Below are positions 6,054 to 32,000 of a DNA stretch of 32,000 bases, in pieces. A model generated the notes under the pieces. It was not told where the DNA came from and searched no databases. It saw only the letters and a program-made list of their open reading frames with translations. Location of the stretch: positions 114,519 through 146,518 of the forward strand of contig NZ_VILB01000006.1 in NCBI RefSeq assembly GCF_009712035.1. The letters run 5' to 3'. This DNA is from Anabaena sp. UHCC 0187. Lineage in GTDB: Bacteria > Cyanobacteriota > Cyanobacteriia > Cyanobacteriales > Nostocaceae. Position numbers and translations under genes: made by a program. Positions within the stretch are counted from its first letter, which is position 1; each line of letters opens with the position of its first letter.

Positions 6054-6455
6054 TTATTGCTGATCCCGATCTAATTCATCTAAGACTCTTTCACAGTACC
6101 AATTTTCTGGCATTCCTGGGAAGTTTTGTTTGGCTTGCTCAATCAGTCTTTCAGCAGCCGCAACGTCTCCAGATAATCTAGCGATTAGGCGATTTTTGAG
6201 GTAGTTGCTAGTAACTTCTTCGTCCACTTGGTTGGGGATGCTGGGATTGACTGATTGGAGGGGTTCGCGTCGCAGTTGCCAAAATAAGACGTAATAAAGT
6301 GTACCAAAAATTAGAATCAGGCTGATTGTTCCCAGGAGTGTGAGGAAATTAAAAGCCAGATTTTGGAGAACTAATTGTGAGAGGACATAGCCCAGTAATA
6401 GACCTGTAACTATTAGAACAAATGTACCGACAAGAATAACTACTTGTGTTCCCAT
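6054..6455 (-). CDS. Two-TM membrane protein with a soluble C-terminal helical domain (hypothetical)
   Basis: 133 aa. The ATG overlaps the ampG-like stop by 16 nt. Two hydrophobic helices are followed by LSGDVAAAERLIEQAKQNFPGMPENWYCERVLDELDRD. Confidence 0.6.
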   Translation of the reverse strand: MGTQVVILVGTFVLIVTGLLLGYVLSQLVLQNLAFNFLTLLGTISLILIFGTLYYVLFWQLRREPLQSVNPSIPNQVDEEVTSNYLKNRLIARLSGDVAAAERLIEQAKQNFPGMPENWYCERVLDELDRDQQ

Positions 6456-7972
6456 ATATCTTCTTCTTCTAGTCCTGGTCTAGTTGCTGCCAATACTTTG
6501 GGATTCCAAGGGGCAACAATAGGTAATAGTAGCAAACCAGGTAACGCCGCTACAAGAGAAAGTAAGAAAAATGTCGGCCAACCTGTGGCTTTTGCCCAAC
6601 TTCCTGCGGGTGCGGAAAGTACGTCTCGACTAATGGCCATGAGGCTGGAGAATAAAGCAAATTGAGTGGTTGTGAATCGGTGGTTACAGAGACGCATTAA
6701 AAAGGCAACTGTAGCAACTGTTACTAATCCAGCAGAGAAGTTTTCAATATTTACTGCTATGACTAATAGAGAATAATCTTTTTTATTAGCCATCGCTAGG
6801 GCATAATAACCTAAGTTACTCAATAATTGCAGCGCCCCAAATACCCACAAACTGCGATTTAAGTTGATTTTGGTCATGATCACACCCCCAGCTAATACGC
6901 CGACGGTGGTGGCAAGAAATCCCATTCCTGCTTGAATTGCGCCGATTTCGGTTTTAGTAAAGTCTATTTCTCTCAGAAATAAGTTAGCTGTAATGCCGAC
7001 GAGGGAATCACCTAGTTTATAAAGTAATATAAAACCTAGTGTTAAACTCGCTTGTTTGATACCAAAGCGGTGAAAAAATTCTTTAAAAGGTAGGAAAATA
7101 GCTGTTTGTAGGTTTTCAGGTGGACTATCTTCGCTAACTTCATTTAGTAGGGAGTTTGGTAATAATACGGATGCAGTTATCCAAGCCACTAATAATCCTG
7201 CTAATAACCAATAAAATACAGGTTGGGGAATGAATCCGACAAAAACCCCAGCTATTAACCCTGCCACTAGTAAGGTAATCAGGACTATAAAAATCACGTC
7301 TTTGGCAGAAATGGGTGCTAATTGTGTTTTGTCTTGTAGTTTGTGTTCTGCGGGCGACCATAAGGTAGTAAATATACTTCCTGCCATAATTACTGCCATG
7401 AGCAAATATACTACATTCCAAGGTAGATAATCTGCTAACACTAAGGCCAGGGAACTGGTAATAAATAAGGCGATGCGATAGCCTAATACCCACACAGATG
7501 CCCCTGGTTGCGCCTCTAGGGGGTTTAAAATGTCGGTACGGTAGGCATCACCAGCGATGTCCTGGGTGGCACTGAGGAAGGTAATAATCAGGCAATTGAT
7601 GGCGAGGATTTGTAATACTTGTTCGTTTTGGGCTGGTTGTTGAAGGGCAAGGGCAGCGATCGCTAATACTAAACCAATTTGAGTAATAATTAACCAACCT
7701 CTTCTGCCACCTAATAATGGTGGTGTAAATCTATCTAATAGAGGCGACCACAGGAATTTTAAGGAATAAGGTAAACTTAATAAACCAAATAAGGTGATTT
7801 TGGCAATATCAACTTTGGCATCTTGCATCCATAGTTGTAGGGTTCTACTGGTCAGAAATAGTGGTAAACCTGATGCAAAACCTAGTAATAATAAAGCACC
7901 CATTTTCTGGCTTTGGAAGGCCTGTCGGAGTGCTTGAATTTCTTTCATAAGATTATCTTGCCATGCTGGCAC
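6440..7972 (-). CDS. ampG: AmpG-family MFS permease (muropeptide transporter-like)
   Basis: About 500 aa and polytopic. The N-terminal LLGFASGLPLFLT...LQLWM and the RRGWLIITQ loop are typical of AmpG/MFS. The start is ambiguous: GTG at 7972 (track) or ATG at 7948. Confidence 0.75.
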   Translation of the reverse strand: MPAWQDNLMKEIQALRQAFQSQKMGALLLLGFASGLPLFLTSRTLQLWMQDAKVDIAKITLFGLLSLPYSLKFLWSPLLDRFTPPLLGGRRGWLIITQIGLVLAIAALALQQPAQNEQVLQILAINCLIITFLSATQDIAGDAYRTDILNPLEAQPGASVWVLGYRIALFITSSLALVLADYLPWNVVYLLMAVIMAGSIFTTLWSPAEHKLQDKTQLAPISAKDVIFIVLITLLVAGLIAGVFVGFIPQPVFYWLLAGLLVAWITASVLLPNSLLNEVSEDSPPENLQTAIFLPFKEFFHRFGIKQASLTLGFILLYKLGDSLVGITANLFLREIDFTKTEIGAIQAGMGFLATTVGVLAGGVIMTKINLNRSLWVFGALQLLSNLGYYALAMANKKDYSLLVIAVNIENFSAGLVTVATVAFLMRLCNHRFTTTQFALFSSLMAISRDVLSAPAGSWAKATGWPTFFLLSLVAALPGLLLLPIVAPWNPKVLAATRPGLEEEDIWEHK

Positions 7973-7985
7973 AAGAAGTGCAAAA

Positions 7986-8381
7986 TCAGGATTTTACTTT
8001 GTTTGTGGACTGTTCAATTAGATCTTCAATTTTCTTAATATTCTGATCTCCTGCTAAGTAACCAATCCCCCGATGTAAATGTAAGCGAAATTGCGTAATT
8101 AGGGTTTCTCTATCTGTATCTAAGCCGTCGTTGTAGCAGCGTTGTTTGAGGGCTAAAAGTAAAATATCGGACATTTCTCCCCCAAAAACCCGCCATGTCA
8201 TTTCGACGTTGCTATCTTGGGGAATGGGTACGGGGGAAGGTGCAGCAACTTCTGCGAGGGAACGACAAAACGCCCACCGACATAATATGTTCCATTGTTC
8301 GATTTTGGTGCTGCGTTTGAGTTTGAGGAGTTGTTCTTTGGCTGTTTGAGAGAGTTTGATTCTTTCTATTGGTGATTCCAT
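7986..8381 (-). CDS. dndE: DNA sulfur modification protein DndE
   Basis: MESPIERIKLSQTAKEQLLKLKRSTKIEQWNILCRWAFCRSL is the characteristic DndE N-terminus, and the 131 aa size fits. I trimmed the track ORF (to 8441) because its first 20 codons lie in a dispersed repeat. Confidence 0.85.
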   Translation of the reverse strand: MESPIERIKLSQTAKEQLLKLKRSTKIEQWNILCRWAFCRSLAEVAAPSPVPIPQDSNVEMTWRVFGGEMSDILLLALKQRCYNDGLDTDRETLITQFRLHLHRGIGYLAGDQNIKKIEDLIEQSTNKVKS

Positions 8382-8410
8382 GATTTTGGTGAAAAATATG
8401 AATTGAGTTT

Positions 8411-8450
8411 CGCGCAAAGGCGCTAAGGAGCAAAGACGCAAAGGAAGAAA
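8411..8450. repeat. Dispersed short repeat unit (GCAAAGG-type triplet)
   Basis: cgcgcaaaggcgctaaggagcaaagacgcaaaggaagaaa is the reverse complement of the unit at 16017-16053. Confidence 0.7.
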
Positions 8451-8467: not shown

Positions 8468-10456
8468 TTACCAAAAATAACCAGGTTTGATTGTGGTTTC
8501 TCTTTTGTTGGAGTTATATTGGAGTAGGTATTCGCGGGCGATGGCTTCGGTTTCTTGCAGGTTTTGATATTCTTTTTTGCCGATTTCGGTGTCGGTGGAA
8601 AGGAGGATTACTTGATGGCTGGCTGAGGGAAAGTATCTTTCTACTAGGTTGTTGCGGTGGGAGGAGTCTAGTCTTCCTAATGGGGTGTCTATGGCGACGG
8701 GTAAGCGTCTTCCTGATACTTTGGCTAGTCCCCACAAAAATGCGATCGCTAATAGTTGTTTTTCTCCGGCGGAAAGTCTATGTTTGGGAACTGGTTTTCC
8801 GTTTAAATCATATAATGATAAGCCGAAGGTTTTGCTGTCTATAGCTATGCGATGTACTAGGTCTGATTTATGTAATAAATATAGAAAACAGTTTTTTACT
8901 TCTTCTTCTAATTTATTCAATTTTCTCAGGGTTAATCTTTCTCGAAATACTTTTAATGTTTGTTGAACTTTTAATGCAGAATCAATAATATGTTCACTAT
9001 TTTGATATTTGATATTTTGTACAGTATATTCATTTAGTTCTTGTCTCAATCTTTTGGTTTCTGTATCTAATTCTATCAGTTTTTGAGTCATTATATCCGA
9101 CTGAGATTTAATTTTATTAAATTCAGTTTGTGCTTCTTTTACTGCTTTTTGTAGTTTTGTATATTCTTCCGGTGCAGCCGCAGTTTGTACTTGTCTTTCT
9201 AAGGTGAGGATTTCTTCTTCATAATTAGTTAATTCATCTAGTTGCTTTTGGGCGGTATTTTGGGAAACCTGTAAACGATAGGTTATATTGTCAAGTAAAC
9301 TTAAACTTTCTTCATCTCCATTTAACCAATTATTTTCTGTTGATAAGTTATTGGTATATAAATTATTAATATCTTCAGCTAGAAAAGATTGAATATTAGT
9401 AACTTTATTAGTTTCTAGATTTAATTGTTGTAGCCAATTTAATAATCTTTCATCTCTAGCAATTAAGACATCTTTAGCTAATTGGATTTGTTGTGTTTTT
9501 AGTTCTTTTTCTCCTTGTCTTTGGACTTGCGATAATAAAGGACTAATTAAGGCTAAAGGTAAAACATCAGCAGCTATTTCACGCAAGGATTCACGGACGT
9601 TATTCGCAACTTTGATTTTTTCTTCCCTTTGTTGTTCTAATTGGCTACGTTCAGCGGCAATTTTACCACCTTCATTCACAAATCTATCTAAAGCCTCTTC
9701 ATGAATTTGTTCTAATTCTTCAACTTCAATATTCAGATTTACGAGTTTTATTTGATTATTTTCGTATTCTGCTTGTTTTTCCTGGATTCGGGTTTCAATT
9801 TCTTCTAATTTAGCTAAATCTTTTGTATCTGCAAATTCTCGTTTTTTGCGATTTACTAAAATCTCTAAATCAATTGCTAATTTATCGGCTAATTCTAAAC
9901 CCAAAAGTCCGTTAATAGCATCCACAACTATAGGAGGTGGGATTTCCTGTTCTGCAAGTTCTTTAACTTGTTCACCGTCAAAAAGAAATAAATTGGAAAT
10001 ACCTATAGGTAAGATATTTTCTATATATTCATCCCAAATATTTACTAATGAATCAATTGGCCATGTTTCATCATCTCCTAATATTCCTAAATGGTCTTTA
10101 CCGTCTTTAGGATTTTTTTCCCATGTCCGCACAACTCGATATTTTATTGGTCTATCTTCTTCGATATGTTCAAAAACTAATTCAATTCTGGTTTTTTCTG
10201 TGGGGGTACTTTTACTATTCACGCATTGGGTTAAAAAATCACTATAACTGAGATTTCCTCTTGTTGAACATTGGGCGCGTTGTCCATATAAAGCGAGGCG
10301 AATGGCATCCATAAGGGTGGTTTTTCCGCCGCCGTTCATTCCTCCTAATAAGATAATTGGGCGGGTGTTGTCTTCGTCAATTTGGGGGTTGAGGTTGATG
10401 ATTTGTTTTCCAGCATAAGGACCGAAGTTTTGCAGGACTAATTCTAGGAATATCAT
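8468..10456 (-). CDS. dndD: DNA sulfur modification protein DndD (SMC-like ATPase)
   Basis: 662 aa. Motifs are MIFLELVLQNFGPYAG, Walker A GGMNGGGKTT, FLFDGEQV, a long coiled-coil middle, signature LSAGEKQLL and Walker B/D-loop PVAIDTPLGRLD. Confidence 0.85.
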   Translation of the reverse strand: MIFLELVLQNFGPYAGKQIINLNPQIDEDNTRPIILLGGMNGGGKTTLMDAIRLALYGQRAQCSTRGNLSYSDFLTQCVNSKSTPTEKTRIELVFEHIEEDRPIKYRVVRTWEKNPKDGKDHLGILGDDETWPIDSLVNIWDEYIENILPIGISNLFLFDGEQVKELAEQEIPPPIVVDAINGLLGLELADKLAIDLEILVNRKKREFADTKDLAKLEEIETRIQEKQAEYENNQIKLVNLNIEVEELEQIHEEALDRFVNEGGKIAAERSQLEQQREEKIKVANNVRESLREIAADVLPLALISPLLSQVQRQGEKELKTQQIQLAKDVLIARDERLLNWLQQLNLETNKVTNIQSFLAEDINNLYTNNLSTENNWLNGDEESLSLLDNITYRLQVSQNTAQKQLDELTNYEEEILTLERQVQTAAAPEEYTKLQKAVKEAQTEFNKIKSQSDIMTQKLIELDTETKRLRQELNEYTVQNIKYQNSEHIIDSALKVQQTLKVFRERLTLRKLNKLEEEVKNCFLYLLHKSDLVHRIAIDSKTFGLSLYDLNGKPVPKHRLSAGEKQLLAIAFLWGLAKVSGRRLPVAIDTPLGRLDSSHRNNLVERYFPSASHQVILLSTDTEIGKKEYQNLQETEAIAREYLLQYNSNKRETTIKPGYFW

Positions 10457-10695: not shown

Positions 10696-12309
10696 CTATT
10701 CATCTGAGTTTTTTTGTGCATATTTGAAGTTAGCCCAAGTTTGTGGTTTAGTCTCTTGTTTTTCGGCGGTATCTCCTAAACTCAATTGTTTGAATTTTTC
10801 CCGAATTGTGGCTACATCACCTTCTAATGCTGCTTGTCTTAAATCCCTTTTTAAATGGGCATTTGCGATCGCTTGTTCTGGTGAACGGGAACTTGTATCA
10901 AAGCATTTTTCTAGGCTTTCGTAGATACCCACACGGCGGGTTTTTTTCTTAAATTGTCTTTCTGTATCTAATAGTCTGGCCATTAATTCTAGGTGCATTC
11001 CGTCACCTTCACAGATTTCTTCTAATATTTCCCATTCATCACTACCAAGTATGCTTTGATCTGCACCAGGACGAGAATCTTTAAATACTTCTCCTGTAAC
11101 TTCTTCATATATACGGGGTAAACTATCATCAAATTCGTGTTTGTCTTCTAACCATATTCGGCGGATAGCACTTAATTCTTCCATACTAATTAGAGTAATA
11201 TCACCCATATTTTTAGGTGCTGTTTGCCGGACTTGTATTTGCGCTTTTAGTAATTTTGTCAACCAATATTCTCGCCAATATTTTGTATATGGACCTGGTA
11301 CTGGTACAACATCTTTCTTTCCTTTAATATCTCGTTCAAATAATTGAACCTGCCCCCGAATTCTTCTAAAATCTCTTTTATCTCTATCATCTTTAACATC
11401 TAATTCATTACGAATATCTAGTAGTATCTGCATCCACTCTTTTTCTTCATCATTTTGGATCATTGCCTCCATTGATTTATCTTTATTTACTAATGTGCAT
11501 ACCCAGCAACCAAATCGAGAATCGCCACAACTAGGTGTAGAAGTATCAACAACTAAAGGACATTCATTATCTGCTGTTGCACCTCGATACATAGTAAATA
11601 AATCTTTATTATTTCCTCCCCACGGATTTTTATATTGATTCAGGTATATCCAAACATCGTTATTACTCCAGTCTTCAACAGGCGTATAAATTAGAGAATT
11701 TGGTAAACTTGCATTAGGACTAAGCCTATCTCTAACTCTACCTAGCTGATGTTTATTCATGGTAGCTGCACGTTTGGAACTTTCCGCTTTACGTGTACCT
11801 AAAACAAGAATTGTTTCGCCATTAGCTCTCACTATTTGACGAATAAATTGATTAGCTGGATTTATTTTTAAACGCGAAGTACACCAACGAAACTGATTAC
11901 GAGGTGCTGGGTATCCTTTACCAATAAGATTTACCCAAAAAGAATCTTCAACTACTGGCTCTAGAAGATGCGCTTCAATTGGCATATTTTGTTCTTGAGC
12001 AGCTAACCGAATATGGTTGATAGATTTACGAACCCAAGCGGCAACTATGGGATTTTCTACCCCCGTATCAGTTGTAATAACATAGATAGTCTTAGTTCTT
12101 TTGTTTGGAGGAAGTGAATAGATAGCATTCCAAACAAGCTGCAAGACTGTACTAGAATCTTTACCCCAAGATACACCTATAATCCAAGGTATCTCATCTA
12201 AACAATACAATTCTTGAATTTCTATAGTCAGAGCTTGAATATCTTCGATTAACTCTGGTACAGTACGATTCGGCTGATTTTTATTTTCTGGCTGTTGTGT
12301 TGTAGTCAT
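10696..12309 (-). CDS. dndC: DNA phosphorothioation sulfurtransferase DndC (PAPS-reductase/PP-loop fold)
   Basis: 537 aa. The PP-loop-like motif is GVSWGKDSS, followed by RWCTSRLKI and the Cys cluster CGDSRFGCWVC typical of DndC. Confidence 0.9.
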   Translation of the reverse strand: MTTTQQPENKNQPNRTVPELIEDIQALTIEIQELYCLDEIPWIIGVSWGKDSSTVLQLVWNAIYSLPPNKRTKTIYVITTDTGVENPIVAAWVRKSINHIRLAAQEQNMPIEAHLLEPVVEDSFWVNLIGKGYPAPRNQFRWCTSRLKINPANQFIRQIVRANGETILVLGTRKAESSKRAATMNKHQLGRVRDRLSPNASLPNSLIYTPVEDWSNNDVWIYLNQYKNPWGGNNKDLFTMYRGATADNECPLVVDTSTPSCGDSRFGCWVCTLVNKDKSMEAMIQNDEEKEWMQILLDIRNELDVKDDRDKRDFRRIRGQVQLFERDIKGKKDVVPVPGPYTKYWREYWLTKLLKAQIQVRQTAPKNMGDITLISMEELSAIRRIWLEDKHEFDDSLPRIYEEVTGEVFKDSRPGADQSILGSDEWEILEEICEGDGMHLELMARLLDTERQFKKKTRRVGIYESLEKCFDTSSRSPEQAIANAHLKRDLRQAALEGDVATIREKFKQLSLGDTAEKQETKPQTWANFKYAQKNSDE

Positions 12310-12489
12310 TTTTCCTTACCTGTGGATATATGAACATAGAATCAATACTTCCCTTTGTGGGAATGGAATCATTTAGTATATAAATAAACTTAACCTATGC
12401 GTGCAACATATTTTTAAAAATTGCATCCCTAGTATCCATTTTTTCGGACAATAAAGCAAGAGTCAGTCACCAAGTTTTCAAAAATTAAC

Positions 12490-14091
12490 ATGAATGATAA
12501 TACAGATACACTAAATAATCAACTCGCTAACGAGTATTTAGAACGGGAAAATAAGGATAAACAGGTATTAGCTTTACTGCTAGACAGGTTTTTAGAGAAG
12601 AAAGACCAAATCCTTGTCCAAAAAACCGAAATGGGTGGTACTGAGGCTTATGTAGGTTCTGTGACATTGGAATGGTTTGCGGGACGGGTACATTTTGCGT
12701 CTGGTTTACCCTTGCTGCAAAAAAAGTACAACCCAGAGACAGAGAATATTGAAATTGACGCTGATAGTATTGATGAAATTCAACAACGTCCTGTTGATTG
12801 GTCGCGTCAAGCACCGTTAGTACAGTATTTAGCAGCGAGAAAAAACCATAAATTTCCGGCTGTGTTGGTAGTAATTAATCAACCTTGGGTGGATAACCCC
12901 AAAGCAGCGGAGTGGGATAGTCAAGGACGAGCTAAAAAAGCGACAACTGATTTTATACCTTTAGATAAAGATGGTAAAGTCGGTTTATTGAATATTTCTG
13001 AAGACAATGTGACAATTTATGCTTTAGATGGTCAGCATAGATTAATGGGTGTCCAAGGTTTAATGGAGTTAATTAAATCTGGTAAACTCCAACGTTATAA
13101 AAAGGATAAAACTGCTGATGAAAGTTTTATTACTCTATCTGATTTGATTGATAAATATCAAGTAGAACCTGCTTATTTACAAAATTTATCTAAAGAAAAA
13201 ATTGGCATTGAATTTATTTGTGCGGTGAATACTGGGGAAACTCATACAGAAGCAAAACGACGGGTAAGATCAATTTTTGTTCATGTAAATTTAATGGCTG
13301 CACCTTTAACTAAAGGTCAGTTAGCACAATTAAATGAAGATGATGGTTTTGCTATTGTAGCGCGAAAAATTGCCGTTACACATCCACTTTTAGAACAAAA
13401 ACCAAATCGCAATCCCCGTGTTAATTGGAATAGTGCCACAGTAGCCGCTAATTCTACGGTTTTGACGACGCTACAAGCCTTACAAGATATGTCTGAAAGG
13501 TATTTGGGGCAAAAGTTCCCCCACTGGAAACCTTTGGAAAAAGGGTTAATTCCCATGCGTCCAGAAAATGAAGAAATTCAGGAAGGAATTGCCGATTTTA
13601 GACTACTTTTTGATAATTTAGCTAATCTTCCCAGTTATAAAATATTGGAACACGAAGATACAACTGTTTTGCGTCGCTTCCATTTTGAAAAAGACGGAGG
13701 TGAGGGAAATATGTTATTTCGTCCAGTTTCTCAAGTTGCTTTAGCGCAAGCTTTGGGAACTTTGGTATTTAAAAAAGATTTTGGTTTGACGGATATTTTC
13801 AAGAAGTTGGAGAAATTTGACCGTCAAGGGGGTTTTAGTAGTATGGAATATCCTCAATCTTTATGGTATGGGGTTTTATATGATCCCAATAAAAAGCGGG
13901 TACAGGTAGTAGGAAAAGATTTAGCTGTGAAGTTATTTATTTATATGTTGGGAGGAATGACTGAAAAAATGGAAGTTACTGCTTTACGTAAAGCTTTAGC
14001 TAATGCTAGGACAATGGAAGACCAAACTATAGGTTTTGATGGTAAGTTTGTCAAACCGCAAGATGTAGGGCTACCAGTTATACTGAGTTAG
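12490..14091 (+). CDS. DGQHR-domain protein 1 (DndB-like, ParB/sulfiredoxin-type fold), 533 aa
   Basis: QRPVDWSRQAPLVQYL is followed by YALDGQHRLMG (DGQHR codons 13027-13041), then FVHVNLMAAPLTKGQ. It is divergent from dndC. It is longer than the classical DndB as I remember it. Confidence 0.8.
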   Translation: MNDNTDTLNNQLANEYLERENKDKQVLALLLDRFLEKKDQILVQKTEMGGTEAYVGSVTLEWFAGRVHFASGLPLLQKKYNPETENIEIDADSIDEIQQRPVDWSRQAPLVQYLAARKNHKFPAVLVVINQPWVDNPKAAEWDSQGRAKKATTDFIPLDKDGKVGLLNISEDNVTIYALDGQHRLMGVQGLMELIKSGKLQRYKKDKTADESFITLSDLIDKYQVEPAYLQNLSKEKIGIEFICAVNTGETHTEAKRRVRSIFVHVNLMAAPLTKGQLAQLNEDDGFAIVARKIAVTHPLLEQKPNRNPRVNWNSATVAANSTVLTTLQALQDMSERYLGQKFPHWKPLEKGLIPMRPENEEIQEGIADFRLLFDNLANLPSYKILEHEDTTVLRRFHFEKDGGEGNMLFRPVSQVALAQALGTLVFKKDFGLTDIFKKLEKFDRQGGFSSMEYPQSLWYGVLYDPNKKRVQVVGKDLAVKLFIYMLGGMTEKMEVTALRKALANARTMEDQTIGFDGKFVKPQDVGLPVILS

Positions 14092-14145
14092 ACAAGTTAG
14101 CGAGTAATATCACCTTGTGGTTTTTACGGATGTTCAATACCACCG

Positions 14146-15384
14146 ATGTTGTTTACTATGTTTTTTGACATCGCTAAGTGTATCAGCATTTATATGACTC
14201 AATTGAACGAAGAAAACAACAAAGATATTACTCCTGAAGTGAAAGCTCAGTTTAGCTCATTTATAGCTCCATTCTTCTCTAAATACCATCGTGATCGGTG
14301 CTATTTAGGACTGAGATTGACACATGGAAACAGGACTATGCTACAAATTAATGTACCTGCTGGTGACTTTTCTGGACTTTTGCAAGCTAAACCTTCAAGT
14401 GGTAATGATCCTGATTCTGGTAAGAATCGTCCAGAAGTTAAAGGCCATGCAGAAGAAATTAAAAAATACATTATCGAACGTGCTAAAAAACAAAAACCTT
14501 GGATTGTGGGAACATTAACAGCAAATGTTTCCCCAAAAGAGATCACTTTTTTAGAATTTGATAGAGATTTTGGCTTAGTTGTTATTCGCAGAGGAGTGAA
14601 GCTAGACATTACTGATGGACAACATCGAAAACGTGCAATTCATGAATTAATAGAAAGTGCTGATAGTTACTTAATTAAAGATGACAATTTTCCAATAACT
14701 TTAGTTTTAGAAGGAGATTTTCAACAGTGTCAGGCAGATTTTAGAGATATGGCACAAACTAGACAGCTTGATAAATCTTTATTGCTGTCATTTGGTGAAT
14801 TTTCTGGTAGAGTCGGCATTAGTAAAGAGTTAGTAAGCCGGGTGTCATTATTTAAGGGGAAAACTGAGAAAATTAAAGCATCACCTTCAACTAAAAATAA
14901 TCTAATTTACACAATGAACTACATCGCTAAATTTGTAAGTTGTGTATTTAGTAATGATATGATGAACCAATTAAAAGAGATAGATGTAGATAGCACATCT
15001 GATACTTTGGTTACTTGCCTAAATCAGTTTTTCTCAGAATGTAGTAATACAGAATATATAGCTTCACTCAGTGTATCTGAATTAACAAATGATGAAGTTG
15101 CTGCATTTAAAGACGATTGTTTATTGGGTGTAAGTGTAGGATTAGAAGTTTTAGGTCGCTTACTATACTGGTCTTATGATGCTGAAGAAAATTATTTTGA
15201 TTCAGAAAAAATTTCTCAACTAGCAAGTTTAAACTGGTCAAGAGAAGATGAAGTTTGGAGAGATAATATAGTTAGAATTGAATCCCAACCCAAAAATTCA
15301 AGCAAGCCTTATAAAATATCAGCGACTGCTGGTGCTGTTACAGACGCAGTAAAGGCAGTAAAAAATAAATTGGGATGGGTATAA
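14146..15384 (+). CDS. DGQHR-domain protein 2 (DndB-like paralogue), about 396-412 aa
   Basis: LDITDGQHRKRAIHELI (DGQHR codons 14614-14628). It begins 54 nt after the previous stop. The start is ambiguous: ATG 14146, or ATG 14194 giving MTQLNEENNK. Confidence 0.75.
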   Translation: MLFTMFFDIAKCISIYMTQLNEENNKDITPEVKAQFSSFIAPFFSKYHRDRCYLGLRLTHGNRTMLQINVPAGDFSGLLQAKPSSGNDPDSGKNRPEVKGHAEEIKKYIIERAKKQKPWIVGTLTANVSPKEITFLEFDRDFGLVVIRRGVKLDITDGQHRKRAIHELIESADSYLIKDDNFPITLVLEGDFQQCQADFRDMAQTRQLDKSLLLSFGEFSGRVGISKELVSRVSLFKGKTEKIKASPSTKNNLIYTMNYIAKFVSCVFSNDMMNQLKEIDVDSTSDTLVTCLNQFFSECSNTEYIASLSVSELTNDEVAAFKDDCLLGVSVGLEVLGRLLYWSYDAEENYFDSEKISQLASLNWSREDEVWRDNIVRIESQPKNSSKPYKISATAGAVTDAVKAVKNKLGWV

Positions 15385-15412
15385 ATGATTAACTGTTTAC
15401 ATTAGAAAAGGC

Positions 15413-15874
15413 TTAGGAGAGGAATTTACTTAAATCAAATTCCTCCGTTTCTTCATGAATATTTATTTTTTGATACTTGAGAAATAATAAAATTCGTTCT
15501 GAATAATCTACAGCACCCCTTAACTCATTTTGTAATATTTCTAGTCCACCATTAGCATATTCTTCAAAAGTATGAATACGTTGATCATCAGATGTTTCAT
15601 CATCACCTAAAATTTTTATATCTTGTATTTCGGTGATAGCTAATAAATTAATCAGCATAGTGAAGCTACTGGGAAAATAATCCTGTCGTAAAGGGGATAA
15701 ATCTTTAGAACTTCCTTCTAGTGGAACTCGCTTTTTATACTTTACTCCCAATGATGCTGCAAATACCATGACTTCTACATAAGTCTGAAAAATCCCACTG
15801 GTATCTTTGGAAGCTACTAACGATTTCACCAACTCAGCCTTATCTTGAGCAATTTTGATTCTATTTGCAGCCAT
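15413..15874 (-). CDS. 153 aa protein, probable 'dnd system-associated protein 4' family member
   Basis: Clean ATG ORF downstream of the DndD-like ATPase on the same strand. The family name rests on my memory of a roughly 150 aa family found beside DGQHR and DndD-like genes, not on a motif I can verify here. Confidence 0.55.
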   Translation of the reverse strand: MAANRIKIAQDKAELVKSLVASKDTSGIFQTYVEVMVFAASLGVKYKKRVPLEGSSKDLSPLRQDYFPSSFTMLINLLAITEIQDIKILGDDETSDDQRIHTFEEYANGGLEILQNELRGAVDYSERILLFLKYQKINIHEETEEFDLSKFLS

Positions 15875-15935
15875 AACTATAAAATCTACACCCTAAATAT
15901 ATTAAACCAAACCTAACTTACTAATAACACACTCT

Positions 15936-15979
15936 CGCGCGCCTCTCCGCGCCTCTGCGCCTCTGCGTGAGAAAAAAAA
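15936..15979. repeat. Dispersed short repeat unit (GCAGAGG-type triplet, inverted orientation)
   Basis: cgcgcgcctctccgcgcctctgcgcctctgcgtgagaaaaaaaa; its reverse complement resembles 10488-10541 and 22408-22460. Confidence 0.65.
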
Positions 15980-16016
15980 TCAACAAACATCCTCACAAAC
16001 CGAGGACTCATATAAC

Positions 16017-16053
16017 TCCTTTCTTCCTTTGCGTCTTTGCGCCTTTGCGTGAG
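16017..16053. repeat. Dispersed short repeat unit (GCAAAGG-type triplet, inverted orientation)
   Basis: cctttcttcctttgcgtctttgcgcctttgcgtgag is the reverse complement of 8411-8450. Confidence 0.7.
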
Positions 16054-16058
16054 ATATA

Positions 16059-18131
16059 TTAATTTCGTTCCACTTCAACAATTTCAGTATATTCAAAACC
16101 ATTCAAACTCTGTCGAACCAAAGCATATCTTTCCCTCCCCAACTCAATAAAATCCTGTTCACAATTAGGCTTAGAAGAATAATAAACCAAAACATATTCC
16201 TTCCCAACCTTATCAGCAATTTCCTCCTCAACCTCAACCCTCCACTGAGTCTTAGTCACCAACACAACCAACTGATTTGCTAACTTAGGAATAGTTCGCG
16301 CAATGTGACGACGAGAATTAACATCTAAACTCCCAAAAGGAGAATCCATAACAATCGGAAAAGTGCTACTTTCAGGAAGCATGATCATTTTCCGCTTCTC
16401 ACTCCAGTCGCGTACCTTATCAATAATACTAGCGATAAAAGATAAACTGAGAATTTGATTTTCTCCCGTAGAAGCTGCGACTGGTGCTTCAATTCCCGTC
16501 GTATTTTCCACCAAACTTAATTCATACTTTTCGCTAATTTTGGGAATGTATGGAGTAAAAGAGATATCCGAGAAAATTTCCTGTACCCGCTGTTCCAATT
16601 GCAGACGAAATTGATTTTCTTGACGGTTTTTAACTTCCGATAATCTATCAATTGCATCTTGAGTAGCATTAATGCGACGCTGTGCTAAAGATTGTTTTTC
16701 CTCATTTTGTTTTTGCTTAGAAATTTGTTTTATCAAAGCATCAATAGCTGTTTTCAGATGAGAAACTTCCTGTTGATTTGCACCTTGTTCTCGATTTAAG
16801 TCATCAATTTTGGCTTCAATTTCATCCAGACGTTTTTGTAAACTACTAATTTCCTCATTGGGATCTTTTCGGAGTTGTTCTTGAATAGTTGCTAACTCCA
16901 ATTCAACTTGATTGAGATTTTCTCTTAACTGTTGAATTCGTGCTTGTTCTCTGTCTGCTTCCTCCCAAAAAGCAACTGCTTGTTTATCAATTTCATCAAC
17001 TTGTGCGCTCATTCTAATTGCGGTTTCTTCCACAGTCGAAGAACCGGATTTTCTCATCAAATTCTTCACATGAAAATGAGTATGAGTTCCTTCCCTCAAA
17101 TCTGCACCACAAATACAACGTCCACTATTGAGTAAATCATTGACAAATTCCCGCGAAATTCCCGCAGTTAATTCACCTTTTTGTTTTAAATCTGTGAAGA
17201 TTTCCCGAAACTTAGCGGTAGTTTCCGACAATAGAACAGTATAACCCCGTGCGGAAATAGCCTTTTTCAAATTCTCCCGTGTTTTCTTCAACTCTTCCCG
17301 TAAACTATCTTTTTGCGATTCTAAACTTTGCTTTCTTTCCTGTAATTCCTTAACAGCACTCAATTCTCGTAACTTGTTACTAACTTCCTTTTTAAAAGTT
17401 TGCTGATATTCCAACTCTTGATTTATTTCTGTTTGACGTTTATTGATATTATCAATTTCCAGTTCTTGTTTTTCTTGCTGAGTCAATAACTGTTTAGTTT
17501 CCGCGTCACCAATATGTTTCAACTCAGTTTCTAAACTCTTTTTAGCATCTTTCAAGTGTTTAATCGAAAGTTCAATAACTTCCACACCCAAAAAAGTTCT
17601 AATTGCTTCAGAAATTTCCGCTTTATTATCAGAACGGACAATTTCTTCAATCCGTTCACCGTCAAAGAAAAAATATTGATGTAAACTTGCTGGTAAAATC
17701 TGAGTAATAATTTCCTCAGCTTGTTGAAGAGGAAAATACCATTTTCCATCATCTCCAGCAACTTGAATTTTCAACTGAGTTTTCCCAGCTTCAATCACAT
17801 CACTTTCATTTTTATAAACCCGACAACCACGAGTAGCACGATAACGATTACCTTCATGTTCCCAACCAACTTCCACCCAACATTCCACAGGTTGACTAGG
17901 TTGAGATTCTGCAATTGCGCGTTTATTTACTAACTGTTCAGTTGACGCAAAAGCCGCACTAAATTTTTCATATAAAACCCAAGTAAACGCATTCAAAATA
18001 CTAGTTTTACCTGCACCATTACTACCATAAATCATAGTAGTATTGCGAACATCTCCACCAGCCAAAGTTATTTCTGGTGTCTTCCCATAAAAAGAACGAA
18101 AATTACATAATTTAATAGAAGTTAGCTTCAT
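16059..18131 (-). CDS. SMC-like AAA ATPase, paralogue of DndD (690 aa)
   Basis: Walker A GSNGAGKTS (18000-18026), FFFDGERIEE, about 350 aa of coiled coil, signature STGENQILSL and Walker B/D-loop PIVMDSPFGSLD. Each motif parallels the DndD gene at 8468-10456. Confidence 0.8.
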   Translation of the reverse strand: MKLTSIKLCNFRSFYGKTPEITLAGGDVRNTTMIYGSNGAGKTSILNAFTWVLYEKFSAAFASTEQLVNKRAIAESQPSQPVECWVEVGWEHEGNRYRATRGCRVYKNESDVIEAGKTQLKIQVAGDDGKWYFPLQQAEEIITQILPASLHQYFFFDGERIEEIVRSDNKAEISEAIRTFLGVEVIELSIKHLKDAKKSLETELKHIGDAETKQLLTQQEKQELEIDNINKRQTEINQELEYQQTFKKEVSNKLRELSAVKELQERKQSLESQKDSLREELKKTRENLKKAISARGYTVLLSETTAKFREIFTDLKQKGELTAGISREFVNDLLNSGRCICGADLREGTHTHFHVKNLMRKSGSSTVEETAIRMSAQVDEIDKQAVAFWEEADREQARIQQLRENLNQVELELATIQEQLRKDPNEEISSLQKRLDEIEAKIDDLNREQGANQQEVSHLKTAIDALIKQISKQKQNEEKQSLAQRRINATQDAIDRLSEVKNRQENQFRLQLEQRVQEIFSDISFTPYIPKISEKYELSLVENTTGIEAPVAASTGENQILSLSFIASIIDKVRDWSEKRKMIMLPESSTFPIVMDSPFGSLDVNSRRHIARTIPKLANQLVVLVTKTQWRVEVEEEIADKVGKEYVLVYYSSKPNCEQDFIELGRERYALVRQSLNGFEYTEIVEVERN

Positions 18132-19754
18132 AAAAATACCTGGTATGTGGGAAAATCAGCGGCTTTCGCTCTGAAAGGGATGGTTCTACATGGCTCACCA
18201 GCCGCGACACGGGCGGTTTTAACCGAATTTAACTTTTTAACTTGAGTAACCATACCCATCTTTTTTGTGGATAGTTTTACAAGTTTTATAACTAATTCCT
18301 TGAACTAATCCATTTCTAGTTGAAATATTGAAACTTCCTGTCGTGCGAGTAGCAATTCTTCCAATATATTCGCCAACTTTTTTACCAGTTTTGACAACTG
18401 ATTTAACGATGTCTCCTGTTTGAAAACCAAAATGAAATTTAGTTCTAGAACAGTGACGATTTGGGAATCCGTATTTGTCTGTACGGCAAGATTGTCTAGT
18501 GCCGTGACCGTTAGCTGTAATTAGCAATGGCTTAACACCTTTGATATTGAGAATTGGAGTTAATTGACCAACACAAGCCGCATCAATCCAGTGAGTTTTC
18601 GCTAGTTTCTGTTGACTACGATTGAATTTAGTTAAACCTCCTGAACCCGTTTCTACAGGTAATCCAGTCGCTTTCAAAACTTCTAGTAATACAAAACGAG
18701 TTGTGTTTACTGCGGCTGCATCAGCCAGTGGTCTTTTAGCTTGTTTCAATATTTTTTCCAATTTTGATGGGTCTTTTTTGAGGAAATCTTTAATATCTTT
18801 CGTTCCTTTTTTTGTGTTACATTTTTCACAACTTAAAGCGAGGTTTGTAATTGAATTACTACCACCCTTGGCTTGTGGATGAATATGCTCTACTTGAAAA
18901 GGAACGTCTTTCACTCCACAGTAGGCACATTGCCTATCCCACTTTTCTAGTAAGTATTCTCTGGTTTCATAACCAGCTAAAGTTCCTTGTTGATATTCCC
19001 TACCTTGAATATCAGGATTAGCCATTAACTGCATATCAAAACGTACAAGTTCCTGACTGATAGCAACAACATGGGCAATTTTACTCAGCTTCTTAACCCA
19101 AGTTTTTATATTCTCAATCCGACTTTGCAGGCTTGGTGCTAACCAGCCTAAAGGGCGTGTTCTATTCAAAAATCTTGGTTTTCTGTAACGAGTAATTCTT
19201 GCCCGTCTAAAACGTCTTAATTGTCTTCTAGAAGTTAAAGCATCTCGAATTGCAAAACCTCTATGTTTTAATTCAGCAGCAAATACAACCTCACCACTAG
19301 CATCGTTAATTAATGCTATTCCTGTATGCTTTGCTCCGGGGTCAATCTTTAATCTTAGAGGTAATACGGTTTTAGAACATAATTCTTTCAGAATTAAAGT
19401 AAAAGGAAAACTTCTAAAAACTGCTGCTTTACCATTTCTTAATAGTTGTCTAGCTTGTGCTGAATGAATTGGATTTAATGGTCGTTTATCGGTATCAATT
19501 ACAAATACTTTGGACATAAAGTCCCTCCTTTCGGGTAATGTTAGCTTCGTCAATGTTTTAAGAGCTTTTTAGATTTGCAACACTGTTTCAGTGACTTTAA
19601 AACTGTTTAATTGCAAATGACAGAGCAGGGAACTAGCTACGCATTCCAGGGTGTCGTGACTCAAAAAACGTAGTCAGTGAAGACTTAGACTGGTCAATAC
19701 AGCTTGTTTCGATTTCTCTTACAAGCTCAGTCTCTTTAGGGCTGAGTTACTGAC
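18132..19754 (-). mobile_element. IscB-encoding IS200/IS605-like element with no tnpA (non-autonomous), 1623 bp
   Basis: Both ends are homologous to the mini-copy at 31550-31995, and homology stops at 18132 and 19754. Subterminal hairpins lie at 18214-18225 and 19726-19746. Removing 18132-19754 restores an ATGA stop/start overlap between the flanking genes. Confidence 0.8.
18237..19517 (-). CDS. iscB: IscB RNA-guided endonuclease (PLMP-like N-terminus, split RuvC with inserted HNH)
   Basis: MSKVFVIDTDKRPLNPIHSAQARQLLRNGKAAVFR is the PLMP-type domain. Catalytic motifs are IDPGAKHTGIAL (RuvC-I), AISQELVRFD (RuvC-II), CAYCG...VEHIHPQAKGGSNSITNLALSCEKCNTKKG (HNH) and THWIDAACVG (RuvC-III). The start is set at ATG 19517, preceded by AAGGAGGG at 19523-19530. 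Confidence 0.9.
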   Translation of the reverse strand: MSKVFVIDTDKRPLNPIHSAQARQLLRNGKAAVFRSFPFTLILKELCSKTVLPLRLKIDPGAKHTGIALINDASGEVVFAAELKHRGFAIRDALTSRRQLRRFRRARITRYRKPRFLNRTRPLGWLAPSLQSRIENIKTWVKKLSKIAHVVAISQELVRFDMQLMANPDIQGREYQQGTLAGYETREYLLEKWDRQCAYCGVKDVPFQVEHIHPQAKGGSNSITNLALSCEKCNTKKGTKDIKDFLKKDPSKLEKILKQAKRPLADAAAVNTTRFVLLEVLKATGLPVETGSGGLTKFNRSQQKLAKTHWIDAACVGQLTPILNIKGVKPLLITANGHGTRQSCRTDKYGFPNRHCSRTKFHFGFQTGDIVKSVVKTGKKVGEYIGRIATRTTGSFNISTRNGLVQGISYKTCKTIHKKDGYGYSS

Positions 19755-19770
19755 TGCACCGCTTCCTTCA
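19518..19770 (-). ncRNA. Putative IscB omega-RNA (scaffold 19518-19754 plus about 16 nt guide from flank 19755-19770)
   Basis: It sits immediately 5' of iscB on the same strand, as known for IscB loci. A core of about 100 nt is nearly identical to the second copy (31809-31896). Compensatory substitutions in the stems at 19701-19707/19721-19727 and 19726-19730/19742-19746 indicate conserved RNA structure. Confidence 0.65.
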
Positions 19771-19924
19771 CAATAGTGAGAATATCATCATTAATATGAC
19801 CCTTACTCTTTCTATCTAACCTGCTTTTCTCCAATCTCCATACCTTCTCAATAATTTGCTTTACCTCCGGTGGTGCGCTGGTAATTGGTTCTTGAACGTC
19901 CTCAATATTTGGTTCTGGTATCAT
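19736..19924 (-). CDS. Small protein (62 aa as read; 57 aa native plus 5 IS-encoded residues), first gene of the ATPase operon
   Basis: MIPEPNIEDVQEPITSAPPEVKQIIEKVWRLEKSRLDRKSKGHINDDILTIVKEAVQ, followed by SVTQP* read from the IscB element end. It may belong to the 'DNA modification system-associated small protein' family (from memory only). Confidence 0.55.
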   Translation of the reverse strand: MIPEPNIEDVQEPITSAPPEVKQIIEKVWRLEKSRLDRKSKGHINDDILTIVKEAVQSVTQP

Positions 19925-31192: not shown

Positions 31193-31549
31193 TTACACCC
31201 CGAAAGACTTACCGCAACCACAAGTTTGGGCAGCATTGGGGTTAGTAAATTGGAAACCACCACCAATCATGGCATCACTATAATCGAGCATTAAGCCGTA
31301 AAGGTAAAGGAGACTTTTACGATCGCTGATAATTTTGAAGCCATCATAATCAAACACCTCATCATCAGGGGTAATCTTGCTGACATCCTCAAAATCCATC
31401 ATGTAAGACATTCCCGAACAACCACCTTGTCTGACTCCCACCCGTAAGCATAAATCTTGTCCTTGCTTGTCTTGAAGAGACTTAACCTGACGCAATGCAG
31501 ATTCAGATAACAGAATTCCGCGTTGTTGAGTTTGAGTTGCTTGTGTCAT
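31193..31549 (-). CDS. A-type Fe-S cluster assembly/carrier protein (HesB/IscA/SufA family)
   Basis: 118 aa. [14 protein letters not shown] and the C-terminal [16 protein letters not shown] match the conserved Cys triad pattern. Confidence 0.9.
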
Positions 31550-31995
31550 AAGAATATCCGGTAAGTGGGAAACTCAGCGGCTTTAGCCCTGAGAGGGAAA
31601 CGGCACGAGCGGTTAAAACCGCCTTGAATATTTTTTCATTACCGCCTTGGAGTTGGTAAATTCGGTGTACTTTTGTAATGTACTTTCAACGGGACAATTA
31701 CCGATTCAAAATTCCCAACTCTGTACGCATAATGAATGTTTTGCTCCAAAGAGCCTCCCATTTCTGGGGTAATGTTAGCTTCGACCAGTTATCAGAGCTT
31801 GTTAAACTTGCAACACTGTTTCAGTGACCTTAAAACTGTTTAATTGCAAATGACAGAGCAGGGAACTAGCTACGCATTCCGGGGTGTCGTGACTCAAATA
31901 ACGGCTACCCTTCGACTATGCTCAGGGTGGTCTGGTCAGCACGGCTTGCTTGATTACTCTTGCAAGCCCAGTCCCTTTAGGGCTGGGTTACTGAC
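31550..31995 (-). mobile_element. Internally deleted (MITE-like) derivative of the IscB element, 446 bp
   Basis: 31550-31625 aligns with 18132-18228 and 31762-31995 aligns with 19531-19754. Only degenerate remnants of the iscB 5' and 3' ends remain between them (for example cgtacaga..aatcgg versus the RTDKYGFPNR codons). Confidence 0.8.
31762..31995 (-). ncRNA. Orphan omega-RNA-like sequence with no adjacent iscB
   Basis: The core ttgcaacactgtttcagtgac.ttaaaactgtttaattgcaaatgacagagcagggaactagctacgcattcc.gggtgtcgtgactcaaa is near-identical to 19576-19664. The terminal stems are kept through compensatory changes. Confidence 0.55.
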
Positions 31996-32000
31996 AAATT

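Follow-up and report, generated by a model that had tools for sequence, protein, structure and literature searches.

The closest described counterpart of the locus considered here is the PbeABCD cassette (Xiong et al. 2019, PMC6459918), which is linked to the Dnd system of DNA phosphorothioate (PT) modification. It consists of PbeA, with PLD, ResIII and helicase-C domains, the 66-aa PbeB, PbeC, an ATPase of the AAA_23 type, and the 152-aa PbeD. In Haloterrigena, Pbe halts viral replication without cutting DNA; activity is weak in the absence of PbeA, which is required for full protection (PMC6459918). A re-analysis (PMC10853773) describes an HKD-SF2 helicase, a small disordered protein termed SP, a CxC (Zn-hook) ABC ATPase and a cognate "clade-2" DndE. 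Two further proteins serve as reference points, namely SspE, in which a DGQQR domain is a PT-stimulated GTPase gating the nuclease of the same protein, and DndB, an ATP-modulated negative regulator of dnd. Here we analyse 32,000 nucleotides (nt) of Anabaena sp. UHCC 0187 (GCF_009712035.1, NZ_VILB01000006.1, positions 114,519-146,518), hereafter called the window, and within it the interval 12490-19924 beside dndCDE, which a preliminary description had presented as a five-gene module and candidate PT-dependent effector. The locus is a PbeA-less, DGQHR-rich form of the known Dnd-Pbe/CxC PT system, interrupted by an insertion sequence (IS), and not a new five-gene system. The supposed module is made up of three separate parts: a helicase-less PbeBCD set split by an IscB element, a long DGQHR protein that goes with dndC, and an exchangeable cassette of the DndB-like kind. 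We consider it probable (roughly 0.65) that the interval forms part of a cyanobacterial PT island of a Dolichospermum/Anabaena-like kind, the parts of which differ in their evolutionary behaviour.

All five open reading frames (ORFs) of that description are present, and the profile matches reported below are far too strong to arise by chance. On the plus strand, 12490-14091 and 14146-15384 encode two DGQHR proteins, here called DGQ533 (533 aa) and DndB396 (412 aa as the ORF opens); on the minus strand, 15413-15874, 16059-18131 and 19736-19924 encode proteins of 153, 690 and 62 aa. A sixth ORF, encoding IscB and accompanied by an ωRNA, also lies inside the interval. The three minus-strand genes are, on sequence comparison, PbeD, PbeC and PbeB of the known Dnd-linked Pbe/CxC system. 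The 690-aa protein matches the PADLOC PbeC profile PDLC02753 from position 1 to 648 of 648 (E = 0, 1150 bits) and is a CxC Zn-hook coiled-coil ABC ATPase, with CIC at residues 339-341 (at 339 in its Ruegeria and 346 in its Halococcus counterpart, to which it is 29% and 24% identical, respectively). The claim that it is related to DndD and shares three motifs with the DndD of the window holds, the ATPase being of the Pbe type: FFFDGE (154), the signature STGENQIL (554) and the Walker B/D-loop DSPFGSLD (596) of PbeC, which also has the Walker A motif GSNGAGKT, correspond to FLFDGE (157), SAGEKQLL (562) and DTPLGRLD (590) in DndD, where a CxC motif was looked for and none was found.

The 153-aa protein matches TIGR04062 at 183.7 bits (cut-off 74.25; 2e-54), the family named "DNA phosphorothioation-associated protein 4" and assigned to clade-2 DndE in PMC10853773, so that the suggested likeness to the TIGRFAM "dnd system-associated protein 4" neighbourhood was well founded. 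It is 34.6% identical to Ruegeria PbeD (E = 2e-20) and 30.5% identical to the Halococcus protein in the PbeD position (E = 2e-10). The small protein agrees in position and size with PbeB; sequence homology to the small genes of Ruegeria and Halococcus is undetectable, and PADLOC searches with the 153-aa and small proteins returned nothing even at E<=10, with no PbeB or PbeD model matched. On the Ruegeria plasmid a gene annotated "DNA phosphorothioation system restriction enzyme" precedes one of 63 aa, an AAA ATPase gene and, last, the gene for "dnd-associated protein 4"; the haloarchaeal Halococcus plasmid encodes, in turn, a helicase, a protein of 81 aa, an ATPase and a protein of 145 aa. It is therefore the same order and sizes, together with CIC and the pairwise matches, that identify the minus-strand genes as PbeB, PbeC and PbeD. 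The resemblance to Pbe suspected earlier thus stands for these three genes and not for the DGQHR proteins, which are not Pbe components, and PbeA is absent from the window; the view that the small gene falls outside the four-gene Pbe set was mistaken, since the 66-aa PbeB of PMC6459918 is the SP of PMC10853773. The stops of DndB396 and pbeD converge across 28 bp (15385-15412), as had been noted; this gap contains no terminator-like hairpin and no terminator by consensus scan, although the promoter/terminator hits of that scan were not enriched over shuffled sequence and so carry little information. On the Ruegeria plasmid pTHAF33_d (4.6-11.3 kb of the locus), the complete PbeA-B-C-D set precedes genes for a predicted membrane protein of 180 aa and for the TIGR04172 "PT-associated DGQHR protein 1", so that DGQHR genes downstream of PbeD occur outside cyanobacteria as well.

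The Pbe genes of the window are split by an IscB IS element (18132-19754, 1623 bp, minus strand) that does not belong to the defence system. It contains iscB (18237-19553, minus strand; RRXRR and HNH by Pfam, about 426-438 aa; NF040563 439 bits, cut-off 175) and a HEARO ωRNA (19535-19754, minus strand; RF02033 154 bits against a gathering score of 83, model positions 1-211 of 211), the first base of which is inside the last codons of the small ORF; no tnpA was found in the element. Four relatives (L005, L006, L009 and L010), with 90-96% nt identity over these genes, join 18131 directly to 19755, which delimits the insert exactly as 18132-19754, and since the IS is missing from these four closest relatives the insertion is recent. 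The element entered directly after the last sense codon of pbeB and directly before the ATG of pbeC. The small ORF is now 62 aa, with the IS-derived tail SVTQP, because the mobile element replaced its last codon. Removal of 18132-19754 in silico restores a 57-aa gene (19755-19924 plus 18128-18131) that ends in EAVQ and a TGA overlapping the ATPase ATG (ATGA). The overlap of stop and start proposed earlier is thereby recovered, and the 57 aa given for the small protein are those of its native form. In Calothrix a 57-aa gene likewise overlaps the ATPase gene by 4 nt, as do its counterparts in those surveyed relatives that have the gene. In this strain the IscB insertion may impair pbeC expression.

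Some further features of the element and its kin were observed. The sequence 5' of the ωRNA scaffold (…GAAGCGGTGCA), which would be the guide, is the 3' end of pbeB. A second HEARO ωRNA (about 31565-31996, minus strand, 141.8 bits) lies in a miniature element of ~430 bp upstream of an IscA-like gene (31193-31549); this element has the same ends as the IscB element and no iscB ORF, and is thus a non-autonomous, ωRNA-only derivative. In the Pbe locus of a Halococcus dombrowskii plasmid (3.1-9.4 kb of the locus), a transposase occupies the same junction, between pbeB and pbeC; that locus is found beside DNA methyltransferases, with no dnd gene within the 18-kb stretch viewed.

Relatives were collected by a one-genome-per-species scan with the 533-aa protein, which gave 80 Nostocales species loci in which ORFs were called and clustered; 71 of these have the full 10-kb flank on the PbeD side and are the base for the PbeD, PbeC and PbeA-like counts. 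In the common layout dndE, dndD and dndC are on one strand and DGQ533 is on the other, followed by a variable slot, pbeD, inserts, and pbeC and pbeB. PbeD is found in 69 of the 71 loci, PbeC in 58 and a PbeA-like helicase in 47. The five-gene content of the window recurs in 18 of the 71. Of the co-occurrence with dndCDE across cyanobacteria that had been proposed as a check, the dnd linkage was confirmed and the constancy of the full set was not. The distance between pbeD and pbeC is 184 bp in the window and 83-4919 bp in the surveyed relatives, where toxin-antitoxin-like, Uma2 and SLH genes are often found between the two. This interval is a frequent landing site (seen in L006-L084), its occupants including Uma2-family endonuclease genes, a pair of 78- and 88-aa genes and an SLH/DUF3370 gene.

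In most Nostoc species a gene for a 493-aa SF2 helicase is located beyond, that is upstream of, pbeB, with lexA and argF next in line. The helicase reaches 673 bits on TIGR04095 ("DNA phosphorothioation system restriction enzyme") and 552 bits on the PADLOC PbeA model, the latter over profile positions 240-681 only, and we therefore regard it as a PbeA without the PLD nuclease. These two scores also led us to reject the idea of a housekeeping DEAD-box gene, to which the neighbouring lexA and argF had pointed. In the window it is uvrB that lies beyond pbeB, and when the 32 kb were queried by tblastn with the PbeA-like helicase of Nostoc, nothing better than E = 0.99 emerged; the Dolichospermum/Anabaena clade of the window, with its uvrB flank, is without this helicase.

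The second part of the locus is DGQ533, a long DGQHR (ParB/DUF262-like) protein. It matches TIGR03187 at 198.3 bits (2e-58; cut-off 58.85) and Pfam DndB (PF14072) at 44.7 bits (cut-off 29.1), and its DGQHR codons, GATGGTCAGCATAGA, are at 13027-13041 as previously reported. Hidden Markov model (HMM) searches gave no match of DGQ533 to TIGR03233, TIGR04172 (E<=0.01) or NF041060 (DpdB), and PADLOC returned nothing for it even at E<=10. Its homologues fall into 133 clusters (50% identity, E<=1e-30), the top-scoring of which align over nearly the full length; the family, which we call DGQ53x, is ~520-570 aa long and has at least 576 matches in the one-genome-per-species scan (185,579 species). tblastn of DGQ533 against plasmids gave no match. 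Residues Q99, R100, D180, G181, H183, R184, R258 and F263 are invariant and form a ParB/DUF262-type set, within the motifs QR…W, DGQHR and F…N. Pfam searches of DGQ533 found no GmrSD_N, GmrSD_C or nuclease domain, and the C-terminal half of the family has no invariant His, Asn or Asp and no invariant catalytic-type residue. The AlphaFold2 (AF2) model (pLDDT 89.7) shows a distinct helical C-terminal domain, and its sole PDB fold match by Foldseek, the GmrSD-family protein BrxU, is weak (E 7.5e-4, TM about 0.2); PDB sequence searches with both DGQHR proteins yielded nothing usable. DGQ533 is probably not a nuclease. From the precedents of the SspE N-terminal domain and of DndB/DpdB, we infer that it may be an NTPase that reads or regulates PT status. 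The statement that the window has no SspE-like protein accordingly needs to be divided: a nuclease domain is indeed lacking, and DGQ533 does share its ParB/DUF262-type motifs with the NTPase domain by which SspE senses PT.

DGQ533 is tied to dnd. It has dndC beside it in nearly all of the 80 Nostocales loci, with misses or fragments only at contig ends, and it tracks dndC even in loci without PbeC; in Chlorogloeopsis it is found with dndCD and without PbeC or PbeD. On every surveyed contig with several kb of flank, DGQ53x genes adjoin dnd genes. Distant members (27-51% identity) are the middle gene of a co-directional triad, comprising a GIY-YIG protein (~120-160 aa), DGQ53x (520-570 aa) and a RelA_SpoT-domain protein (~300 aa), the last being PADLOC candidate PDC-S33. 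Triads of this kind (L086, 9.6-12.5 kb; L087, 8.6-11.5 kb; L088, 0.9-3.9 kb; also L103, L126, L130, L131, L135-L138, L140, L145 and L156) are on metagenomic contigs and, wherever the contig suffices, adjoin a complete dndB-C-D-E operon with its own canonical DndB. It follows that DGQ533 is not the equivalent of DndB, nor is it part of Pbe; equivalence to DndB had been entertained, as DGQ533 is always divergent from dndC, and was rejected on the evidence of these distant members. By sequence, DGQ53x is a third dnd-linked family of DGQHR proteins, distinct from DndB. RelA/SpoT is not mentioned in the dnd re-analysis (PMC10853773), and in the open-access full-text literature searched we found no description of the DGQ53x family or of the GIY-YIG/DGQHR/RelA-SpoT triad. 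Since DGQ53x has no PADLOC match, is widespread and is dnd-adjacent, it is a concrete candidate for a new PT-associated component.

The third part is DndB396, a divergent DndB-family paralogue. Its ORF opens at 14146, and homologues begin at residue 17 (14194), giving 396 aa at 14194-15384 (plus strand). Pfam DndB is matched end to end at 280.8 bits (cut-off 29.1) and TIGR03187 at 69.1 bits (5e-19; cut-off 58.85), and the DGQHR codons, GATGGACAACATCGA, are at the expected 14614-14628. The profiles TIGR03187, TIGR04062 and TIGR03185, proposed earlier for a check, all found their matches, and the families are related to dnd; TIGR03233 (DndB) did not bear out the expectation, as DGQ533 has no match and DndB396 stays at 58.1 bits, well short of the cut-off of 328. 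With the DndB model of PADLOC, DndB396 scores 72 bits versus 551 for the canonical DndB of L086, and it is 21.7% identical to the canonical DndB of a metagenomic dnd operon. No match to TIGR04172 (threshold 450 bits; E<=0.01) or NF041060 (DpdB) was found for the 412-aa protein. The two DGQHR proteins of the window, described as paralogues, do share the motif and TIGR03187, and are homologues only remotely, at superfamily level (BLASTP E = 0.027, motif region only). Both genes are divergent from dndC rather than first in a co-directional dndBCDE operon. We considered equating DndB396 with similar genes inside dnd operons (L090, L143, L105) and rejected this, the identity being 23-25% only.

DndB396 occupies the slot between DGQ533 and pbeD, for which more than eight alternative contents were found. 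A gene for an SBD-HNH-like (HNH_2) nuclease, co-directional with pbeD, is present in 33 species loci and DndB396, as in the window, in 25 of the 80. The remaining loci (about 18 other) have a GIY-YIG-like gene with a 665-aa DGQHR gene, HNH with a 577-aa or 389-aa DGQHR gene, GmrSD, HATPase_c_3 with a methyltransferase, AIPR, or others. Some of the Nostocales slot genes match DpdB and TIGR04172 weakly. The second DGQHR gene thus gives way to unrelated genes in some two thirds of species and, as one slot option among many, DndB396 is not a fixed member of the island. It could be argued that the slot is a mere integration hotspot of a defence island and that DndB396 and its alternatives are independent of both Dnd and Pbe, for it includes families that work alone elsewhere (GmrSD, AIPR, HATPase_c_3 with methyltransferase), and Uma2, toxin-antitoxin-like and SLH genes accumulate nearby. 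We find this improbable, since most slot alternatives are DGQHR or PT-related, the HNH_2 gene resembling the "phosphorothioated DNA-binding restriction endonuclease" family (128 bits, short of the 180-bit cut-off), since a DGQHR protein also follows PbeD in Ruegeria, and since slot and PbeD distances are strongly correlated and PbeD alleles track dndC alleles, as detailed below. In the Oscillatoriales (L169, Kamptonema, 10.0-14.8 kb; L170; L142) the order is reversed: in Kamptonema and Oscillatoria a DndB396-type gene is beside dndC and the long DGQHR gene comes after, the full Kamptonema order being dndC, DndB396-type gene, a DndB-family gene on the opposite strand, DGQ53x and pbeD. The DGQHR families remain neighbours there, and either can adjoin dndC.

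The dnd genes of the window are on the minus strand and consist of dndC (10696-12309; PAPS-reductase-type sulfurtransferase, TIGR03183 716 bits), dndD (8468-10456; ABC ATPase without CxC, TIGR03185 717 bits, cut-off 245.85) and, as the last gene of the operon, dndE (7986-8441; clade-1 DndE, TIGR03184 134 bits, cut-off 71.85, Pfam DndE 150 bits). No dndA was found in the window, and PT modification would therefore rely on a housekeeping cysteine desulfurase. The divergent intergenic region between dndC and DGQ533 contains an AT-rich palindrome, GCAAcatATTTTTAAAAATTGC, at 12403-12424, which is conserved at >=90% per column among 72 distinct Nostocales intergenic sequences and may serve as an operator or promoter. 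Directly downstream of dndE, 42 Nostocales loci (in the range L021-L084) and distant dndBCDE operons (L086, L087, L090, L147) encode a 480-530-aa protein that matches Methyltransf_23 weakly; the window is without it, and an MFS/AmpG-like gene (6440-7972) abuts dndE instead.

Selection was compared across the PbeA-less clade. Relative to the window, DGQ533, PbeC, PbeB, dndD and dndE have synonymous divergences (dS) of 0.12-0.85, mostly 0.12-0.5, and ratios of nonsynonymous to synonymous divergence (ω) of 0.03-0.18, mostly <=0.14, the highest being that of dndE against L005; ω is 0.07-0.14 for PbeC, 0.03-0.09 for PbeB and 0.07-0.10 for DGQ533. These constant genes are under purifying selection along a shared clonal frame. 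One could suppose that the DGQHR proteins are only regulators or accessory NTPases of the DndB or DpdB kind, that the Pbe remnant is a non-functional relic and that the system is essentially one of solitary modification. DndB is a known negative regulator of dnd, DGQ533 and dndC share the divergent promoter with the conserved palindrome, DndB396-type genes adjoin dndC in Kamptonema and Oscillatoria, PbeA is absent, the IS breaks the pbeB-pbeC coupling, and many dnd systems lack a restriction partner. Even so, we think this account unlikely. PbeC and PbeB are under strong purifying selection across the PbeA-less Dolichospermum clade (ω 0.03-0.14) with their catalytic motifs intact, and the IS, as noted, is recent. 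The slot alternatives are mostly nucleases, and the GIY-YIG and RelA/SpoT partners of distant DGQ53x, found besides a canonical DndB, are effector-like rather than regulator-like company.

A different pattern was seen for dndC, DndB396 and PbeD, with dS of 0.6-1.5 relative to the window; the exception is L006, which has the same alleles as the window. For dndC against close relatives dS is 0.6-0.9, and for dndD about 0.2. The allelic hypervariability of dndC is in its N-terminal ~390 codons: DndC of the window and of L005 are 43-90% identical across the first ~390 residues and 93-100% identical beyond, and the variable end is the one nearest DGQ533. When pairwise distances were compared over all loci, the constant set of DGQ533, dndD, dndE, PbeC, PbeB and PbeA had mutual Spearman coefficients of 0.58-0.91. 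PbeD distances correlate at 0.19-0.33 with this set (0.25 with PbeC), 0.49 with dndC and 0.91 with the HNH slot gene. The allele groups of dndC and PbeD correspond nearly one-to-one, with an adjusted mutual information (AMI) of 0.78 (0.57-0.91 over tighter clustering thresholds) whereas no frame gene exceeds 0.53. Among the 51 species of the largest DGQ533 clade, dndC and PbeD have an AMI of 0.83, as against 0.07 when dndD takes the place of dndC. Once DGQ533 is controlled for, dndC and PbeD keep a partial correlation of 0.39 (permutation p about 0.002); the species in these comparisons are not phylogenetically independent. A conserved DGQ533 gene is thus flanked by two segments that switch alleles together. 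We read the joint allele switching of PbeD, the slot gene and DndC (its N-terminal three quarters) as a sign that modification and restriction specificities are matched, and the data suggest a functional association of PbeD with DndC and the slot gene that is no weaker than its association with PbeC.

These results bear directly on the proposal of the preliminary description that the five genes make up a single PT-dependent effector module, dedicated to this task, inherited as a unit and novel in mechanism. All five genes are intact and together beside dndCDE, all five families are dnd-linked in cyanobacteria, and the content does recur in the 18 loci mentioned above. Nonetheless we judge such a module very unlikely and do not retain it: DGQ533 occurs with dndCD in the absence of PbeC and PbeD in Chlorogloeopsis and is associated with different genes in distant taxa, the second of the DGQHR genes is often swapped, unrelated genes commonly separate pbeD from pbeC, and the distance matrices divide the genes into a constant and a variable set, with PbeD co-varying with the slot gene and dndC. 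Moreover, PbeB, PbeC and PbeD, which account for three of the five, have already been described under these names.

On the observed gene identities, layout, insertion, conservation and co-variation a mechanism may be built, each biochemical step of which, like continued defence by a PbeA-less, IS-split system, we infer. DndCDE, with a housekeeping desulfurase, would write PT on host DNA. By analogy with the proposal in PMC10853773, PbeC as a Rad50-like Zn-hook ATPase and PbeD as a DndE-type DNA binder could form a DNA-scanning complex, with PbeB as a putative small regulator of PbeC/PbeD. DGQ533 would be a nucleotide-dependent reader or regulator of PT, for which SspE and DndB offer precedents, and the slot gene, here ParB-like with no obvious nuclease, would supply or tune the output. 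Since Haloterrigena Pbe does not cut DNA and has weak activity without PbeA, a nuclease-poor, PbeA-less version could still act. We tentatively extend this scheme, as a doubtful though not far-fetched possibility, to a PT-reading NTPase hub formed by DGQ53x, which would couple Dnd to interchangeable effectors: GIY-YIG and a RelA/SpoT-type nucleotidyltransferase in many bacteria, and HNH, GIY-YIG, DGQHR and DndB-like cassettes together with PbeD in cyanobacteria. On the same tentative footing, the joint switching of the DndC N-terminus, PbeD and slot would mark the specificity determinants of PT restriction-modification (R-M).

Several observations weigh against the picture of a PT island with an active Pbe part. 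PbeA is required for full protection in Haloterrigena yet is missing from the window, and the IS uncouples the translation of pbeB and pbeC; with both lost, the module could be impaired or decaying despite intact ORFs. In ~12 relatives DGQ533, the slot and PbeD are present with no PbeC within 10 kb, and PbeD may therefore not act only with PbeC. BLASTP of PbeD against DndE was uninformative and hhalign gave a probability of 1%; for a low-confidence AF2 model of PbeD (pLDDT 62), DndE (4lrv) has the top TM-score in the Foldseek list, with an E of 4.7 that is not significant. The stand-alone defence families in the slot, such as GmrSD and AIPR, are what would be expected of a plain integration hotspot, and the position of the DndB396-type gene next to dndC in Oscillatoriales fits a purely regulatory, DndB-like role. 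Finally, physical linkage and shared recombination tracts could partly explain the co-variation, the more so as the species are non-independent. With respect to decay, the selection data argue against it in the lineage as a whole.

How Pbe senses PT and what sets the sequence specificity of DndCDE are questions on which this locus family could shed light by way of natural experiments. Dozens of close cyanobacteria have the same dndD, dndE, DGQ533, PbeC and PbeB and differ in matched sets of dndC, PbeD and slot gene, some of them being without PbeA. If the hub reading were true, it would identify the specificity determinant of Dnd and the means of self/non-self discrimination by Pbe, in analogy to hsdS swapping in type I R-M systems. 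Most parts of the locus are of known kinds; what stands out is DGQ53x, as an uncharacterised family, and the way in which alleles of dndC, PbeD and the slot vary together. In addition, three likely mislabels are corrected, namely those of the 396-aa paralogue as "DndB", of PbeC as "AAA family ATPase" and of the PLD-less PbeA as "DEAD helicase".

Turning to the known systems, the insert resembles the OMEGA elements of the IS200-IS605 type in its full IscB (RRXRR and HNH) with an upstream full-length HEARO; lacking TnpA, it is a passenger and not part of the PT system. DpdB of the 7-deazaguanine Dpd system and TIGR04172 are, like the DGQHR proteins of the window, attached to DNA-modification or defence islands, whereas neither window protein matches NF041060 or TIGR04172. 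With SspE and GmrSD/BrxU, DGQ533 shares the DUF262/ParB-type motifs (QR…W, DGQ[HQ]R, F…N); it differs from SspE and GmrSD in having no DUF1524/HNH nuclease domain and in its Dnd rather than Ssp context, and the fold match to BrxU is weak. As in DndB (TIGR03233), both plus-strand proteins have a DGQHR ParB-like domain and a Pfam DndB match and are encoded near dndC. Unlike DndB, neither reaches the equivalog cut-off (none for DGQ533, 58 bits vs 328 for DndB396), and the genes are divergent from the dnd operon; DGQ533 is also ~150 aa longer, with a distinct helical C-terminal domain, and distant DGQ53x coexist with canonical DndB. From PbeABCD the locus departs in that PbeA is absent from the window and in relatives is a helicase only, without the PLD/HKD nuclease, that the operon lies beyond two DGQHR genes, is interrupted by IscB and has a putative antiviral activity, and that window-type PbeD co-varies with dndC and the slot gene, not with PbeC. 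It agrees with PbeABCD in the order of a small protein, a CxC coiled-coil ABC ATPase and a ~150-aa protein beside dndCDE, in the overlap of the native small-gene stop with the ATPase start, and in the homology of its PbeC and PbeD to their haloarchaeal and alphaproteobacterial counterparts.

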